Source: Campylobacterales bacterium
GTDB lineage: Bacteria > Campylobacterota > Campylobacteria > Campylobacterales > QNZT01
Assembly: GCA_024278835.1 (NCBI GenBank)
Contig: JAJRSK010000045.1
Coordinates: forward strand, 3,444-67,443
DNA: 64,000 nt
Reading direction: 5' to 3'
Shown piece after piece: positions 13,903-42,127 of the stretch. The notes beneath the pieces are model-generated. The model ran no database searches. It worked only from the letters and a program-made list of their open reading frames with translations, and was not told the DNA's origin. The position numbers were made by a program, and so were the translations under genes. Within the stretch, counting starts at the first letter, position 1, and the number at the start of each line of letters is the position of its first letter.

Positions 13903-13931
13903 GATATTCCCCTATTTTTATTTTAATTACG

Positions 13932-13954
13932 TTTTAGGAGCAAAGCTCCTAAAA
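13932..13954. other. Perfect 10-bp hairpin TTTTAGGAGC-AAA-GCTCCTAAAA, about 30 nt upstream of the ferredoxin-like ORF
   Basis: Read directly. Shares the GGAGC-loop-GCTCC core with the hairpins upstream of infA and rpmJ. Confidence 0.5.
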
Positions 13955-14039
13955 CTAACGCTAACGCTAAGTTCTCTTCAGCAGAGGGCTCGCGTGCAGA
14001 TGAACCACACTTCGCTTGCCTACAACTTTGGATTTATAC

Positions 14040-17795: not shown

Positions 17796-18422
17796 TTATT
17801 TTGAGTATAACTCGACAATCAATCTTTCTTCAACAGGTATAACAACCTCTTCACGCTCAGGAAGCCTAGTAAAGATACCATAACCTTTTTCAATCTCAAC
17901 ATCAACCCATGCAGCGATACCAGTTTGTGCTGTTAATTCACCAGCTCTAACGATTTGTGCATTACTTTTAGATTTTTCTTTAATCTCAATTTTTTGACCT
18001 GGTTTAACTCTGTATGAAGGAATATCTAATTTCTTTCCATCTACTAAGATATGACCATGAGTCACTAATTGTCTAGCAAAGTTTCTTGTTGTAGCAAATC
18101 CCATTCTATAAACAGCATTATCAAGACGACGCTCAAGAAGTGTTACAAGGTTTGCACCTGTATTTCCTTCCATATTGTTCGCATCTTTAAATAATCTTCT
18201 AAATTGCTTTTCAGAAACACCATACATGAACTTTGCTTTTTGCTTTTCTCTAAGTTGTAAACCATACTCAGAAATCTTCGTTCTTCTTTGACCGTGCTGT
18301 CCTGGTGGATAAGGTCTTTTATCTAAAGCACTCTTACCTGCTAATCTTCTTTCACCTTTAAGTGCTAAAGATACACCTAGTCTTCTCTCGATTTTTTCTA
18401 CTGGTCCTCTATATCTTGCCAT
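17796..18422 (-). CDS. rpsD: 30S ribosomal protein S4
   Basis: [19 protein letters not shown]. Confidence 0.97.
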
Positions 18423-18431
18423 TATCTACCC

Positions 18432-18824
18432 CTACACTCTTCTACGTTTTGGAGGTCTACAACCATTATGAGGTAATGGAGTAACATCTTTAAAGAATGT
18501 CACTTTTAAACCTTCGATTGCACCAACACTTTTTACTGCTGTTTCACGACCAGAACCAGGTCCTTGAACTTTAATACCAACTTCTTTGATACCATGTTCC
18601 ATCGCTTTAGCCATTGCGTCTTCTACTGCTTGTTGTGCTGCATATGGTGTAGATTTTTTACTACCTTTAAATCCTAATCCACCAGCTGAGCTCCATGCTA
18701 TTGTATTACCCATTTCATCTGTAACGGTAATCATTGTATTGTTAAATGTAGCCGCGATATGCACGATACCTTTAGCAATATTTTTTTTAGCAACTTTTTT
18801 TCTAGTAACTTTTCTTTTAGCCAT
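18432..18824 (-). CDS. rpsK: 30S ribosomal protein S11
   Basis: [18 protein letters not shown]...[16 protein letters not shown]. Confidence 0.97.
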
Positions 18825-18842
18825 TTATAATATCCTCTCAGC

Positions 18843-19205
18843 TTACGCAGCGCCGACAGTCTTTTTTCTTCCTTTTCTAGTTCTTGCGTTTGTTTTTGTT
18901 TTCTGACCTCTAACTGGAAGACCACGTCTATGTCTAAGACCTCTATAGATCCCTAAGTCCATAAGACCTTTGATGTCCATCGCAACTTTTTTACGAAGAT
19001 CACCTTCCACTTGATATGATGCTTGAATTTCTTTACGAATATTTGCAGCCTCATCTTCTGTTAGCTCATGTACTCTTTTATCATATGAGATACCGACAAC
19101 GTCTAAAATTTTTCTAGATGTTACAAGACCGATACCATAGATATATGTTAGTCCATACTCTATTCTCTTCTTTTTTGGTAAATCCACACCAGCAATTCTT
19201 GCCAT
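18843..19205 (-). CDS. rpsM: 30S ribosomal protein S13
   Basis: [26 protein letters not shown]. Confidence 0.97.
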
Positions 19206-19207
19206 GC

Positions 19208-19321
19208 TTATCCTTGTCTCTGTTTATGTTTAGGGTTTTTGCAGATTACTCTTACTGCACCTCTACGTTTGATAATTTTACAATTATCACACATTTTTTT
19301 TACCGATGGTCTGACTTTCAT
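19208..19321 (-). CDS. rpmJ: 50S ribosomal protein L36
   Basis: [37 protein letters not shown] (37 aa). The upstream extension of the track ORF to 19405 is non-coding leader. Confidence 0.95.
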
Positions 19322-19329
19322 TTTAATCC

Positions 19330-19396
19330 TTTTCTTTGAGACGAGCGAAGCTCCTCCCAAATTCATTGCATCTAAAGCTACGGCAGTAGCCGAGAA
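19330..19396 (-). repeat. Copy A of a conserved ~67-nt leader element (upstream of rpmJ)
   Basis: Hand alignment with 20009-20074 gives about 55 of 67 identical positions. Contains the CGGC-NACT-GCCG hairpin, the AATGAATTT box and the GAGC-TTC-GCTC hairpin. Confidence 0.75.
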
Positions 19397-19766
19397 AGCA
19401 TACACCCATTCTTTACAATTAAGTGAAATTCGGGTGTGAACGCCTAAAATGCCACAATTATCTTCTTCTTTGAATGAGGCAAAGCCACATTCAAATTTGT
19501 CTCAACTAAAGTCATCACTAATAGTAAAAACTTTTGTATCAAACACCTCTTAACAATGAATATCACATTTATCATAATAATAAATATCTATACAATGCTA
19601 GTCTAAAACTTTTTCTATTTTCCACTTAAAATAACGAACGAAATGGTTCATTGAAATACTCACAAACCAATAATTGAAAAAACAGTGGGCTTTTGTCAAT
19701 CATTCTTCTTATAGTCCCGTCATTCGAGCAATAGAGCGCGCATTGTAGCCTAGTAAAGGTTAAAGA

Positions 19767-19985
19767 TTACTTATATCTAAAAGTAATTCTGCCTTTATCT
19801 AAACTATAAGGTGTCAACTCTACTTTTACTTTGTCACCAAGCATTATCTTGATGTAGTGCATACGCATTTTTCCTGCAATATGACAAAGTATTTTATGTC
19901 CATTTTCAAGTTCAACTTGAAATGTTGCATTGGGTAATGCTTCTATCACTTTTCCATCAATTTCGATTACATCATCTTTTGCCAT
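19767..19985 (-). CDS. infA: Translation initiation factor IF-1
   Basis: [47 protein letters not shown]. Confidence 0.97.
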
Positions 19986-20008
19986 TTATTTTCCTTTTCA
20001 TTTATTTG

Positions 20009-20074
20009 TTTTCTTTAAAAGGAGCAGAGCCCCTCTTAAATTCATTGTACTAAAGCTCCGGCAGTCGCCGAGAA
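20009..20074 (-). repeat. Copy B of the conserved ~67-nt leader element (upstream of infA)
   Basis: See copy A. Its 3' hairpin GGGGC-TCT-GCTCC is followed by TTTT on the minus strand, so it is terminator- or attenuator-like. Confidence 0.75.
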
Positions 20075-20230
20075 GCTTCTTGATTTATTTATCTTCTGTA
20101 TAAGGAGAAAAACAAGCAAATATAATCACCCTTGGACGGTGTTTCCTTGAAAGTCCCTTTTACATTTATCACTACGACTAACGTCGAGAATTTATCATAT
20201 TATCTTTACAGTTATCACTATCATGATAGC

Positions 20231-20989
20231 TTAGACAAGTGACAGAATCTCTGCTTTATTATTTACAATCGCGACAGTATGCTCATAGTGACTACCTTTC
20301 AAACCATCTACCGAAGTCACTGACCACTTATCATCTAAAATCTTCGCTGTTGGAAGTTTTTGACAAATCATTGGTTCCAAACAAAATACCATACCATTTT
20401 TAATTTTTGGTCCTTGTTTAGGATTTGGTCCGTCTAGATAATTTGGTATTTCTGGTTCTTCATGCGGTTTACGACCGATACCATGCCCACAAAAACCGTG
20501 CAATGGTACATAACCACGCTCAGTAATAAACAGTTCAATCTCATAGCTCAGTTCTTTAAAACGCATACCAGTTTTGATGATGTCAATCGCATGATATAGT
20601 GTATCTTTTGCACAAGCGATCAGTGCTTCATCTTCTTGCGAAATCTTACCAATAGGCATCGTTACCGCAGCATCACCGTACCAACCATCTTTTTAAACAC
20701 CAATATCTAGACCAAGGATATCACCTTCTTTAACAATAGTTTCATCAGGTATACCATGGATAATGATTTCATTTACAGAAGTACAAACTCCTGCTGGAAA
20801 TCCATATAGACCTTTAAAAGCAGGCCTTGCATCCAAAGAAGCGATAAATTCTTCGCCCATTTGATTGATATGTGCTAATGTCATACCAGGTCGAACATAG
20901 GTTTCAAGATGATGGAGAGTTTTTGCTACATAAGAGTTAGAAACCCTCAACATTTCAATGTCAGAGGGCTTCTTAATAGAAATTCCCAT
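20231..20989 (-). pseudogene. map: Methionine aminopeptidase type I, interrupted by one in-frame TAA
   Basis: Track ORFs 20693-20989 and 20231-20659 are in the same frame (offset 462 nt). They are separated by TAA at 20693-20695 plus 11 sense codons, KDGWYGDAAVT, which belong to the conserved MetAP core. Confidence 0.85.
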
Positions 20990-20993
20990 AGAT

Positions 20994-22253
20994 TTATAAT
21001 CCTATGGAATTAAGTGTGTTATATTTATTCATATAAACTTGTGCTTCAATCTTTCTCATAGTGTCAAGAGCCACTTGTACAACAATTAGAACAGCAACAC
21101 CACCAAAATAAAATGGTACACCCATCGCTTTTATTAAAATAAAAGGCAATGTTGAGATAAGACCTAGATAAATAGCACCACCAAAAGTAAGGCGAGATGC
21201 TACTTCATTGATAAACGCAGCAGTACTTGCACCTGGTCTCACACCAGGGATAAAACCACCCTGTTTTTTCAAGTTTTCAGAGATGTCTTTAGCATTAAAT
21301 ACAATAGACGCATAAAAGAATGCAAAGAAAACAACACCTAAAAACATGAGTACATTAAAGAGATAACCACCCGGACTTAACGCATCAGAAATTGCTAAAA
21401 CAGTAGGATTTGTACTCCCCTGCAAGAGTGTTGCTGGCATCATCAAAATAGCAGAAGCAAAAATCGCTGGAATAACACCAGAAAGGTTCACTTTGATAGG
21501 AATATAATTCATTACTCTTTTATTTTGATTATCCATCATTGTTTTTCTTGAATACGATATAGGAACTCTTCTTTCCCCTAACTCTACATAGATAATCACA
21601 CCTATTGTTAATAAAACAACAGCGAACATACCTAAAACAGATAAGAAGTTTAAATCACCTGTATTTACAAGACTGATAGTTCCAGCGATTGCTTTAGGAA
21701 TACCTGAAACGATACCTGCAAAAATGATAAGGGAAATACCATTACCAATACCACGTTGTGTAATTTGTTCACCAATCCACATAAGTAACATCGTCCCCGT
21801 TAACATAGAAACAGCTGCAATCGGTATAAAAGTACCCATATCTATCATGATAGCACTTTGACCACCTGAGGACATATTTTGAAGTCCCATAGAGACACCA
21901 ACAGCCTGAACAAGCGTGATAACAACAGTAGCGTAACGAATGATTTGCATATATTTCACCATACCATCACGCTCTTTTTTCATTTGTGCGAGATTTGGGA
22001 AAGTAGCTGCGAGAAGTTCCATGATAATTGAAGCAGTGATATAAGGCATAATACCTAGTGAAATGATACTGAGTCTGGAAATAGCATTACCAGAAAACAT
22101 ATTAACCATACCCAATGCATTGTTAGAGTTTGAATCAAAAAAAGACTTAATAACCTCCACATTTACACCAGGAACTGGCACATAGGACAAAATCCTATAT
22201 GCGAACAAGAAACCAAGTGTTATCAGTATCTTGTTGGTTAAATCTTTACTCAT
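20994..22253 (-). CDS. secY: Preprotein translocase subunit SecY
   Basis: 419 aa, 10 TM helices, operon position between rplO and map. Confidence 0.97.
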   Translation of the reverse strand: MSKDLTNKILITLGFLFAYRILSYVPVPGVNVEVIKSFFDSNSNNALGMVNMFSGNAISRLSIISLGIMPYITASIIMELLAATFPNLAQMKKERDGMVKYMQIIRYATVVITLVQAVGVSMGLQNMSSGGQSAIMIDMGTFIPIAAVSMLTGTMLLMWIGEQITQRGIGNGISLIIFAGIVSGIPKAIAGTISLVNTGDLNFLSVLGMFAVVLLTIGVIIYVELGERRVPISYSRKTMMDNQNKRVMNYIPIKVNLSGVIPAIFASAILMMPATLLQGSTNPTVLAISDALSPGGYLFNVLMFLGVVFFAFFYASIVFNAKDISENLKKQGGFIPGVRPGASTAAFINEVASRLTFGGAIYLGLISTLPFILIKAMGVPFYFGGVAVLIVVQVALDTMRKIEAQVYMNKYNTLNSIGL

Positions 22254-42019: not shown

Positions 42020-42127
42020 GTTAAACTCCTTATTATTTTATTTGTCTCCTTGACGCTAGGTAAAGCCCACCGCCAACTTATATCACTAAAACACAATGCC
42101 AAGGCACCGTCTTTTGATGATGTAAGT

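Follow-up and report, generated by a model that had tools for sequence, protein, structure and literature searches.

A dispersed two-hairpin repeat ending in a ribosome-binding site precedes infA, rpmJ and unrelated genes in a Campylobacterales genome

The two similar structured elements that lie upstream of infA and rpmJ in this Campylobacterales genome are two of about fifty copies of a folded repeat, and for that reason they are not a switch dedicated to these genes. We consider it probable that the repeat is a small, non-autonomous, dispersed MITE/REP-like element with a ribosome-binding-site end, which we call the leader repeat and group broadly with REP, MITE, Correia, RPE and BOX elements, and we infer from its sequence that it has an RNA function. 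A first-pass annotation of the 64,000-nt window (the whole stretch of DNA analyzed here) had pointed to two look-alike copies on the minus strand, and they lie where it placed them: 55 of 67 aligned positions match between strings of 66 and 67 nt, both copies hold the two hairpins and the AATGAATTT box, and their common 25-mer pattern matches twice in the window against 0.00 times in 100 shuffles. Measured from the HMM end, the distance from copy to start codon is 17 nt at infA and 1 nt at rpmJ. Two further pieces had been overlooked, a degenerate third copy and a remnant that consists of hairpin 1 alone (Table 1), and the weaker similarity noted further upstream of the copies (GGGACTATAAGAAGAA) turned out to be part of another element, the single-copy conserved rpmJ leader described below. 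The proposal of a cis-regulatory RNA dedicated to IF-1 and L36 gives way to the presence of 47-50 copies at ~41 loci in unrelated intergenic regions, and the fallback suggestion of a small repeated element was right. Spread over dozens of unrelated intergenic sites, which the annotation had itself named as a refutation, is what we found.

Table 1. Copies of the leader repeat and neighboring features (positions in the window).
Feature	Position	Strand	Basis
Full leader-repeat copy, variant v1, 5' of infA	19998..20077	-	covariance model R1, 76 bits
Full v1-like copy directly 5' of rpmJ	19319..19399	-	R1, 70.1 bits
Degenerate third copy, infA-rpmJ spacer	19453..19534	-	R1, 50.7 bits; nhmmer E = 1.6e-7
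Remnant of a further copy, hairpin 1 alone (UUCUCGACGUUAGUCGUAG)	20172..20190 (about)	-	read from sequence
Further copy, v3-like, decayed, 5' of Hsp20-like gene	42034..42114	-	R1, 43.4 bits
infA (IF-1, 72 aa), downstream of first copy	19767..19985	-	ORF list
rpmJ (L36, 37 aa), downstream of second copy	19208..19321	-	ORF list
Conserved single-copy rpmJ leader, separate from the repeat	19615..19747	-	alignments A4 and A5, 18-19 genomes

The infA copy consists of hairpin 1 (CGGC-GACU-GCCG), the AGCUUUAG box, ACAAUGAAUU, hairpin 2 (12 bp, with the apex GCUCUGC) and AAAGAAAACAAAUAAAU, and is followed by AAAGGA, the infA ribosome-binding site, and the ATG, both of which stay unpaired in the predicted fold; the infA product is 72-99% identical to those of relatives. 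At rpmJ, the tail of the copy, AAAGAAAAGGAUUAAA-AUG, appears to be the present-day ribosome-binding site, and relatives outside the genus carry TAGGAG-N6-ATG at this start instead of the repeat. The orthologous copies at the rpmJ site of genomes G001 and G002 have near-identical boxes and tails, and their hairpin-2 stems are wholly different yet still complementary. The third copy retains an intact hairpin 2 and a decayed hairpin 1, and the remnant appears to sit just past a decayed old infA ribosome-binding site and ATG (AAAGAUAAUAUGAUAAA), which were judged by eye against the empty junction of G002, ...AAAGGATTTAG-ATGGCAAAA. The ORF that follows the decayed v3-like copy starts with MYVTRYNPARDL..., 18 nt downstream.

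In the 2.5-Mb genome, nhmmer finds 50 copies and the covariance model R1 finds 47-49, grouped into ~41 loci. Nearly all copies are sense-oriented, and most end 0-25 nt 5' of start codons: for 35 of the 50, a gene on the same strand starts within 40 nt, nine others precede a further copy in a tandem array, and the remaining six are located before 16S rRNA, inside RNase P RNA, 3' of a gene where two genes converge, or where the context is unclear. The downstream genes are unrelated (rplL, rplK, rpoZ, sucC, flgC, fliS, hspR, ruvB, nfo, pheA, glyQ, amtB and others), and where an upstream ORF could be identified it is mostly co-directional (41 of 48 copies). One copy lies within helix P12 of RNase P RNA and another in the 16S rRNA leader, with a good promoter ~140 nt upstream of it; in G005, one copy is antisense between two tRNA genes. 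A promoter reading of the box was rejected, as the hexamer TACAAT occurs in three copies only and the others have TGCAAT or GCGCGT. Separately, the palindrome TATCATGATA, iterated genome-wide, is enriched within 60 nt upstream of repeats (11 of 41 loci against about 5% expected); it has 1549 copies, mostly within ORFs, and was for that reason discarded as a promoter of the repeat copies.

The repeat unit is ~75-85 nt long. It begins with (U)UCU and hairpin 1 (4-7 bp, variable in sequence), continues with AGCUUYAG and a 6-11-nt box that ends in GAAUU, then forms hairpin 2 (12 bp, with a variable stem and a conserved GC-UUU-GC apex), and closes with AAG and an A-rich tail that contains a Shine-Dalgarno sequence in most copies. 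In variant v3 the tail has GGAG 7-8 nt from the ATG (four copies, by eye), and an extra Shine-Dalgarno-like word (GAGAGGAA) lies upstream. Hairpin 2 is paired at 96.6% against 72% in shuffles (0/500), is almost always exactly 12 bp long, and shows compensatory changes at nine of its 12 pairs; in hairpin 1, one pair varies as CG/UA/AU and another as CG/GC/AU. Among the 1284 stem cells, G·U pairs outnumber A·C by 122 to 14, implying that the fold is kept on the transcribed strand, and the predicted folds of the copies leave the ribosome-binding site and the ATG single-stranded. The unpaired motifs (GCUUYAG, GAAUU and AAG) and the GCUUUGC apex hardly vary between genera and families, in contrast to the freely changing stems, and the median identity among dispersed copies is 68%, with a few pairs at 91-95%. 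By mutual information, an AGGAA box goes with a GGAGA tail and an AUGAA box with a GAAGA or GAAAA tail. We found no consistent Watson-Crick register and no fixed direct-repeat offset that would make this association a base pair or a duplication flanking hairpin 2, and we read it as a set of subfamily markers, although the hairpin-1 types re-assort freely (types A and B with box variants v1-v3). The repeat differs from a generic REP in being nearly always sense at start codons, in its covarying stems and in its large excess of G·U over A·C, and these features make an RNA-level effect on the downstream gene likely.

To see the repeat against its empty sites, we compared this genome (G000) with its relatives. 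Between map and infA, the spacer measures 245 nt in this genome and 227 nt in G001, and the junction without the repeat is 37 nt in the congener G002 and 6-34 nt in most other relatives; by this comparison, the infA copy is a lineage-specific insertion. Both G000 and G002 have the repeat at ruvB, where G001, G003 and G012 show an empty site (TACTAATGGAGCG), and at nfo only G000 has it. The tip of RNase P RNA helix P12 contains a copy in G000 and G001 and a degenerate one in G012 (by eye), and none in G002 and others. For the 16S leader, where the comparison leaves out the close relatives because their MAGs are without assembled rRNA, G000 has a copy, G101 from another family has an element-like sequence at the same place (by eye; nhmmer E = 0.07), and G046, of the same genus as G101, is without the repeat. 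In G002 the rplL copy has lost hairpin 2. The repeat is therefore insertion-polymorphic between close relatives, and it is sometimes tandemly amplified. Short duplications appear to flank it at five sites, all judged by eye: ATGAAA stands on both sides at nfo and ATGG(A)G at ruvB, where the duplication is clearest, and a similar duplication of the ATG region is seen at map-infA and two 16S sites. The length of the target duplication is only roughly defined, at 5-9 bp, because the left copies have decayed.

These sites suggest how the leader repeat may spread and persist. It would insert, in a transposition-like or recombination-like manner, at or just inside start codons, and the copies would survive because the duplication regenerates the start codon, because the 3' end of the repeat provides a correctly spaced ribosome-binding site, and because hairpin 2 holds this site unpaired. 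At infA, a tight and probably translationally coupled junction with map would have become a 245-nt spacer with independent initiation, and at rpmJ the old TAGGAG site would have decayed while the repeat tail took over. A stabilizing or processing role of the hairpins is possible. No mobilizing enzyme was identified, and two candidate sources of mobility were set aside. A Y1 (RAYT-like) gene of 258 aa does not co-occur with the repeat, and a RAYT was rejected as the mobilizer on these grounds: the protein is present in the element-free genomes G006, G008, G013, G027 and G029 and was not found in the carriers G001 (25 copies; 82% complete), G005, G010 and G014. The resident IS200-type element, the sole IS examined, has only an 11-mer (CTTTAGTGCAA) in common with the v1 box, and its hairpins differ; it was dismissed as a parent. 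Clear terminal inverted repeats are absent, as the ends UUCUC... and ...GAGACAAUAA have at most 4-5 complementary bases, and the inverted repeats of the unit are its internal hairpins.

Among the 151 Campylobacterales genomes, 27 carry the repeat, in seven of 25 families and with a patchy distribution, and several of the carriers are complete genomes (G061, G101 and G161, for example); in the same family as our genome it occurs in 12 of 24 genomes, with 1-25 copies each. It is found in MAGs labeled Sulfurospirillum, Sulfurovum, Sulfurimonas and Arcobacter, and was absent from all chance pattern matches outside Campylobacterota (80 loci scored). The same genes are preceded by copies in different genera (rimO, glyQ, a permease, a rubrerythrin-like gene and sucC), and these same-gene copies show compensatory stem changes. 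A search of window positions 18000-22000 against Rfam 15 (cmscan, E ≤ 10) returned two chance snoRNA hits only, and the loci with the copy upstream of rplL (C70) and copy C16 gave no hit at the gathering score. In the literature on repeats of Campylobacterota, Sulfurovum and Sulfurimonas, on MITEs of Epsilonproteobacteria and on rpmJ leaders, we found no description of the leader repeat and nothing that bears on the rpmJ leader.

That the elements are a dedicated attenuator, processing site or protein-binding leader controlling IF-1 and L36 synthesis is hardly credible. The idea rests on two similar structured copies within an operon whose other junctions are short, and is countered by the ~50 copies before unrelated genes, by the absence of the infA copy from most relatives, and by the fact that the conserved single-copy structured RNA of the spacer is a different sequence. 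An attenuator in particular is unsupported, since a U-tract is missing and terminator prediction between 19150 and 20300 gave no such site; the U4 that the first-pass annotation took for a tail after the infA hairpin lies in the 3' arm of the stem, and hairpin 2 is followed by AAAGAAAAC. Equally far-fetched is a boxA/boxB-like Nus-factor antitermination signal, in which a variable hairpin precedes GCUUUAG..CAAU in the manner of GCUCUUUAACAAU. Copies do occur in the rRNA leader and before ribosomal-protein genes, and GCUUUAG..CAAU loosely resembles the E. coli boxA consensus. However, the CAAU part is missing from variants v2 and v3, the copies are located at 0-25 nt from a start codon or within RNase P RNA, and the rRNA leader has a boxA-like word of its own, AAUCUCUGAAAAC, upstream of the repeat, which by eye corresponds to AAUCUUUGAAAUC and GAUCUUUGACAACC in rRNA leaders that lack the repeat in other genomes and recurs in those of G046, G061, G161 and G027; because of this separate word the boxA reading was rejected. 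We also regard as very unlikely a coupling through a leader cistron, in which the old left start codon opens a frame that runs through the repeat and stops at or over the real start, where ribosomes re-initiate. The frame from the left ATG does span single copies, with a TGA that overlaps the ATG at nfo, a TAA directly before the ATG at ruvB and a stop 3 nt before it at rimO, but open box-to-start frames show no enrichment (21 of 34 copies, with 16.9 ± 2.8 in the shuffles), the frames vary between copies, the peptide is not conserved, and such a frame would be of no use to the copies within RNase P RNA or ahead of 16S rRNA.

A doubtful reading, which is not mutually exclusive with the leader-repeat reading, is that of an RNA module between cistrons that the host selects across its genome, with mobility as a secondary matter. 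One trans-acting factor, either an RNA-binding protein or an RNase (for example RNase Y, J, III or P), would recognize the box and the hairpin-2 apex and cut or bind there, and the downstream cistron would gain a hairpin-protected 5' end and an expression uncoupled from the upstream gene. The near-invariance of the unpaired motifs and of the GC-UUU-GC apex across genera and families, with stems left free, and the retention of copies at one gene in more than one genus, their stems altered in a compensatory way, fit such a one-factor module equally well; the strand-specific tolerance of G·U points to selection at the RNA level, and the nearly constant 12-bp length of hairpin 2, the preference for positions between co-directional genes and the copy in the 16S leader also speak for it. 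On the other hand, congeners differ in the presence of the repeat at infA, ruvB, nfo and rnpB, 18 of the 25 families have none, the rplL copy of G002 lacks hairpin 2, no candidate factor was found, and some contexts make no sense for a module of this kind (the tip of P12 in RNase P RNA, the 3' side of a gene where two genes converge, and the antisense copy between the tRNA genes of G005). We hold it to be improbable, too, that the repeat is a mobile leader that homes to start codons, is aimed at ATG-R sites, brings its own ribosome-binding site, and was later domesticated as a common intercistronic expression module for a single dedicated factor that binds or processes RNA. In that scheme the start codon would be regenerated, the factor would recognize the invariant box and the GC-UUU-GC apex, and the 16S rRNA 5' end (AAUGGAG) and the RNase P RNA P12 loop (CAUGAAAG, at the empty site) would be look-alikes of the ATG-R target.

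Returning to the leader repeat as a dispersed element of probable MITE/REP type, we compared it with known systems. REP/BIME elements and REPINs of Enterobacteria and Pseudomonas are likewise short, high-copy, hairpin-forming and co-transcribed with their flanking genes, with compensatory stem changes and some tandem copies. In contrast, REPs are found mainly 3' of genes, in either orientation, and are accompanied by RAYT (Y1) transposases, whereas the repeat is sense at start codons, has a ribosome-binding site at its end and shows no co-occurrence with the Y1 gene that we examined. The Correia elements of Neisseria (CREE/NEMIS) share the MITE-like insertion near gene starts, the co-transcription and, as far as the sites compared suggest, the target duplication, and alter the expression of neighboring genes, but they are 100-155 bp long, have 26-bp terminal inverted repeats and a TA target and occur in either orientation; the leader repeat is without clear terminal repeats, its apparent duplication takes in the ATG at these sites, and its tail holds a Shine-Dalgarno sequence. 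Rickettsia palindromic elements are also structured and tolerated inside functional genes including those for stable RNAs, tmRNA in their case and P12 of RNase P RNA in that of the leader repeat, but they enter coding sequences in frame and are translated as segments of the peptide, while the leader repeat stays outside, at the 5' edge. The BOX elements of Streptococcus pneumoniae resemble the repeat in their modular make-up, tandem sub-units, location near gene 5' ends and stable RNA fold; however, they are unrelated in sequence, do not contain the ribosome-binding site of the gene and are not locked to the start codon. A stable hairpin directly 5' of an unpaired Shine-Dalgarno sequence is also the design of the ompA and aprE leader hairpins, the cryIIIA STAB-SD and the synthetic RiboJ hairpin, and the host phylum depends on RNase J and RNase Y. 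These 5' stabilizers and insulators are single-gene leaders, whereas the repeat is dispersed and its stabilizing effect is putative.

Small dispersed repeats are usually seen as junk behind genes, whereas the leader repeat sits at gene starts and closes with a ribosome-binding site. It makes long, structured spacers out of gene junctions that were tightly coupled, and can even occupy a helix tip of RNase P RNA and the 16S rRNA leader. If the targeting of start codons is true, it would be a natural 'portable translation-initiation cassette' and a neglected force that shapes operon junctions in Campylobacterales of vents and sediments. In annotation, the repeat calls for caution before look-alike leaders are named gene-specific riboswitches or attenuators, and the copies of the repeat should be kept distinct from the neighboring rpmJ leader.

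The rpmJ leader is a pseudoknotted RNA of ~112 nt in the infA-rpmJ spacer. The conserved region has a -10 box, TACAAT (19742-19747), and an invariant GAAGA; hairpin A (19704-19669) carries CCAC in its loop, hairpin B spans 19668-19645, and GUGG (19625-19622) pairs with the CCAC of the hairpin-A loop to form the pseudoknot. Its 24 pairs are 95.8% paired against 86.9% in shuffles (0/500), with compensatory changes at 14 pairs. The leader has no Rfam match by cmscan, and model R2, built for it, finds exactly one match per genome in 69 of the 151 genomes, located just after infA in the five that were cross-checked (G008, G011, G026, G027 and G035). Compared with ribosomal-protein autoregulatory leaders such as the S4-binding alpha-operon pseudoknot of E. 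coli (RF00140), the repeat fails every defining feature, while the rpmJ leader is single-copy, syntenic and pseudoknotted and stands ahead of rpmJ-rpsM-rpsK-rpsD-rpoA. The rpmJ leader is likelier than the repeat to be a ribosomal-protein regulator, and it looks like a new one.

The minus-strand gene order at the locus is secY, map, infA, rpmJ, rpsM, rpsK, rpsD, rpoA. The two similar stretches that the first-pass annotation had described upstream of infA and rpmJ are both present and match at 55 of 67 aligned positions; a 25-nt pattern shared by the two occurs nowhere else in the 64-kb window and never in 100 shuffles. To place them in the genome, we searched the whole assembly (2.5 Mb, 77 contigs) with blastn, an iterated nhmmer profile and a covariance model of this ~80-nt leader repeat (R1), and found 47-50 copies at about 41 loci. 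The annotation's alternative of a small repeated element is thus borne out, and the dozens of copies at unrelated genes run contrary to a gene-specific reading. Of the 50 copies in the nhmmer set, 35 lie no more than 40 nt from a gene start on the same strand, nine are upstream members of arrays, one each is located just before the 16S rRNA 5' end, within RNase P RNA and 3' of a gene in a convergent pair, and three have unclear contexts. The downstream genes are unrelated (rplL, rplK, rpoZ, infA, rpmJ, sucC, flgC, fliS, hspR, hsp20, ruvB, nfo, pheA, glyQ, amtB, rimO-like, exbD and others). Tandem arrays contain four units upstream of flgC, three upstream of hspR, and two upstream of rpmJ and at two other genes. 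Because the upstream ORF is co-directional in 41 of the 48 copies that have an identifiable one, most copies occupy intercistronic gaps. The dispersed copies of this genome share a median identity of 68%, with a few pairs at 91-95%.

Features of the leader repeat, the rpmJ leader and an IS200-type element (window positions unless a contig of the source genome, G000, is named)
Feature	Position	Strand	Details
Repeat copy upstream of infA	19998-20077	minus	covariance model, 76 bits
Repeat copy upstream of rpmJ	19319-19399	minus	covariance model, 70 bits
Degenerate third repeat copy	19453-19534		covariance model
Fourth repeat copy, upstream of Hsp20-like gene	42034-42114		covariance model
Repeat remnant	about 20172-20190		hairpin 1 only
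Possible decayed repeat copy	13916-13988	minus	weak model match, 21 bits, E = 0.17
rpmJ leader, between infA and rpmJ	19615-19747	minus	pseudoknotted, ~112 nt, with own -10 box
rpmJ leader -10 box	19742-19747	minus	TACAAT
rpmJ leader adjacent hairpins	19704-19669 and 19668-19645	minus
rpmJ leader pseudoknot	19625-19622 (GUGG)	minus	loop CCAC with downstream GUGG
RNase P RNA gene with repeat copy	G000:C37:36369-36778		410 nt, outside window
IS200-type element	G000:C40:5869-6443, start of C41, several contig ends		tnpA only, ~575 nt

The unit reads (U)UCU, hairpin 1, AGCUUYAG, a variable box with a GAAUU end, hairpin 2, AAG and an A-rich tail. Hairpin 1 is of type A (UCGCC-AAA-GGCGA) or type B (ACGAUGC-GAA-GCAUUGU), and its central pairs covary (one is CG in 40 copies, UA in 23 and AU in 19, another CG in 41, GC in 22 and AU in 14). 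Hairpin 2 has 12 bp and an almost invariant GC-UUU-GC apex; in the 42 best copies its pairing is 96.6%, compared with 72% in column shuffles (reached in 0 of 500) and ≤61% in slid controls, with compensatory changes in nine of the 12 pairs. Over 108 distinct copies from the source genome, its relatives and metagenome-assembled genome (MAG) loci, the stem cells comprise 1115 Watson-Crick, 122 G·U and 14 A·C combinations, and G·U so far above A·C implies that the fold of both hairpins is kept on the sense strand, as expected of RNA. Covariation, which the first-pass annotation had proposed to look for, is therefore present; the Rfam scan proposed with it returned no family resembling the repeat in Rfam 15 (window positions 18000-22000 and the loci of the rplL-upstream C70 and the C16 copies), and we found no description of it in Rfam or in the papers searched. 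Three variants differ in box and tail: v1 (GCAAUGAAUU and AAGAAAAC), v2 (GCGYGUGAAUU and AAGAUGAC) and v3 (GAGAGGAAUU and AAGGAGAC). The GGAG of v3 is located 7-8 nt upstream of the ATG in four copies inspected by eye, and v1 and v2 have an AGGA(G) word about 20 nt further on. Hairpin-1 types re-assort with the variants and the boxes correlate with the tails; since no consistent base-pairing or direct-repeat scheme fits this correlation, we treat v1-v3 as subfamilies. Minimum-energy folding formed hairpin 2 in all seven leaders folded and left the ribosome-binding site and start codon unpaired in most of them, including infA and nfo, with the start region partly paired in ruvB and rplL.

Comparison with relatives revealed filled and empty sites. 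Among 30 relatives, most have a map-infA spacer of 6-37 nt (the congener G002, at 37 nt, lacks the element). The spacer is 245 nt long in G000 and 227 nt long in the congener G001, where it contains two tandem copies; G026, of another family, has its own copy there. The infA-rpmJ spacer, about 165 nt in the majority of relatives, reaches 382-445 nt in this genus (three genomes), where 220-280 nt with one or two copies separate the decayed old ribosome-binding site from the ATG of rpmJ. At the rpmJ-proximal site, the three orthologous copies are near-identical in box and tail, and their hairpin-2 stems are wholly different with complementarity retained. The ruvB site is empty in G001, G003 and G012, which have the ancestral panB-stop/ruvB-start overlap TACTAATGGAGCG, and filled by 150-170 extra bases in G000 and G002; nfo is filled in G000 only, and the rplL copy has lost hairpin 2 in G002. 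In most relatives the gene for RNase P RNA measures 320-343 nt; a copy at the tip of helix P12 lengthens it to 410 nt in G000 and 429 nt in G001. By eye, G012 shows a degenerate copy at this tip; G002 has none. A P12 extension in G027, of another family, has just the GGGGCUUUGCUCC hairpin apex. Directly upstream of the mature 16S rRNA 5' end, G000 has a copy, and G101, of another family, has an element-like sequence (by eye; nhmmer E = 0.07) that its congener G046 lacks. The patterns conflict across loci, G000 joining G001 at some and G002 at others, implying that gains, losses or recombination must be frequent.

All filled and empty junctions were compared by eye. Bases around the ATG are present on both sides of the insert: nfo has TAATGAAAAT on the left and AATATGAAATAT on the right (ancestral TAAATGAAG), ruvB has CTGATGG(T/A)(G/T)GC and AAATGGAGCG (ancestral CTAATGGAGCG), map-infA has AAAGATAATATGATAAA on the left compared with the empty AAAGGATTTAGATGGCAAAA, and both 16S sites show the same two-sided pattern. 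This doubling resembles a target duplication, about 5-9 bp long, by which the start codon would be regenerated. There are also hints of sequence-directed targeting, because the repeat recurs next to the 16S AAUGGAG, where translation cannot select, and because the empty P12 loop of G002 holds a CAUGAAAG word. The palindrome TATCATGATA, which occurs 1549 times genome-wide (e.g. at about 20218-20229, immediately 3' of the map stop codon), lies ≤60 nt upstream of 11 of the 41 repeat loci vs about 5% expected from its density between genes, frequently at the left boundary of the insert. Codon 99 of the map gene itself is an in-frame TAA (20693-20695, minus strand), where nine relatives encode Glu. 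The assembly has no other methionine aminopeptidase gene, and the TAA may reflect an error of assembly or consensus calling, a variant within the population or a true disruption of this essential gene.

R1 detected the repeat in 12 of the 24 genomes of the same taxonomic family (1-25 copies each) and, across the order, in 27 of 151 near-complete genomes belonging to seven of 25 families, with none in the other 18. A pattern scan of named genomes gave at least 120 loci, 80 of which were scored with R1. It confirmed 47 copies, all in Campylobacterota MAGs (labelled Sulfurospirillum, Sulfurovum, Sulfurimonas, Arcobacter, Sulfurovaceae or 'Campylobacteraceae'), and the non-Campylobacterota matches among the scored loci are due to chance. 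Variant v3 predominates in these copies, which precede gcvH, guaB, rpmA, atpA, groEL, proB (in a Sulfurospirillum MAG), parB, metK, purH, sucC and many other genes. Several genera have copies at the same gene (rimO, glyQ, a permease, a rubrerythrin-like gene, sucC), and the stems of such copies show compensatory changes between genera.

The leader repeat is thus a high-copy, insertion-polymorphic, tandem-prone element with two hairpins, located at start codons and carrying a ribosome-binding site in its tail. The first-pass annotation had favoured a cis-regulatory RNA dedicated to infA and rpmJ, which the copy number and the empty sites refute, and its suggestion that the infA copy is an attenuator is refuted by the lack of a U-tract. 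Translational coupling through mini-ORFs in the repeat is visible in single copies, but is not enriched overall (21 of 34 copies vs 16.9 ± 2.8 in shuffles). A role as a boxA signal fails because the G000 rRNA leader has a separate boxA-like word, common to element-free leaders. This word, AAUCUCUGAAAAC, accompanies a TGnTATAAT promoter about 225 nt before the 16S rRNA in the operon on contig G000:C25 and by eye resembles AAUCUUUGAAAUC and GAUCUUUGACAACC of other Campylobacterales rRNA leaders. A link to the IS200-type element rests on one 11-mer, CTTTAGTGCAA, common to the left-end hairpin of that element and the v1 box; a RAYT link was rejected because the 258-aa Y1 gene examined does not co-occur with the repeat. 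The IS200-type element is present in several copies, which break the assembly at contig ends.

We class the leader repeat with the known small structured dispersed repeats, from which it is distinguished by its start-codon placement, the ribosome-binding site in its tail and the fact that RNase P RNA and the 16S leader tolerate it. It may spread by a transposition-like or recombination-like route, and copies would be retained because each insertion leaves an ATG in place through the duplication and brings a Shine-Dalgarno sequence in its tail, insulated by hairpin 2. At infA, a coupled junction would have become an independent initiation region, and at rpmJ the old TAGGAG would have given way to the repeat's tail. 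It is also plausible that the element serves the host as a processing site or 5' stabiliser, in view of its invariant unpaired motifs, the constant length (12 bp) of its hairpin-2 stem and its bias towards G·U.

The infA-rpmJ spacer also contains a separate RNA, the rpmJ leader, within the first about 150 nt 3' of infA that are conserved in relatives. It has an invariant GAAGA, and across 18 genomes its 24 pairs are 95.8% paired vs 86.9% in shuffles (0 of 500), with compensatory changes in 14 pairs, two of them in the pseudoknot. Its model matches 69 of 151 genomes, exactly once in each, and these represent 14 of the order's 25 families; in all five genomes cross-checked (G008, G011, G026, G027, G035), the match directly follows infA. 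It has no Rfam match, and we found no paper on it. From its position ahead of rpmJ-rpsM-rpsK-rpsD-rpoA, and by analogy with the E. coli alpha operon, we consider it a candidate S4-type ribosomal-protein leader of these genes.
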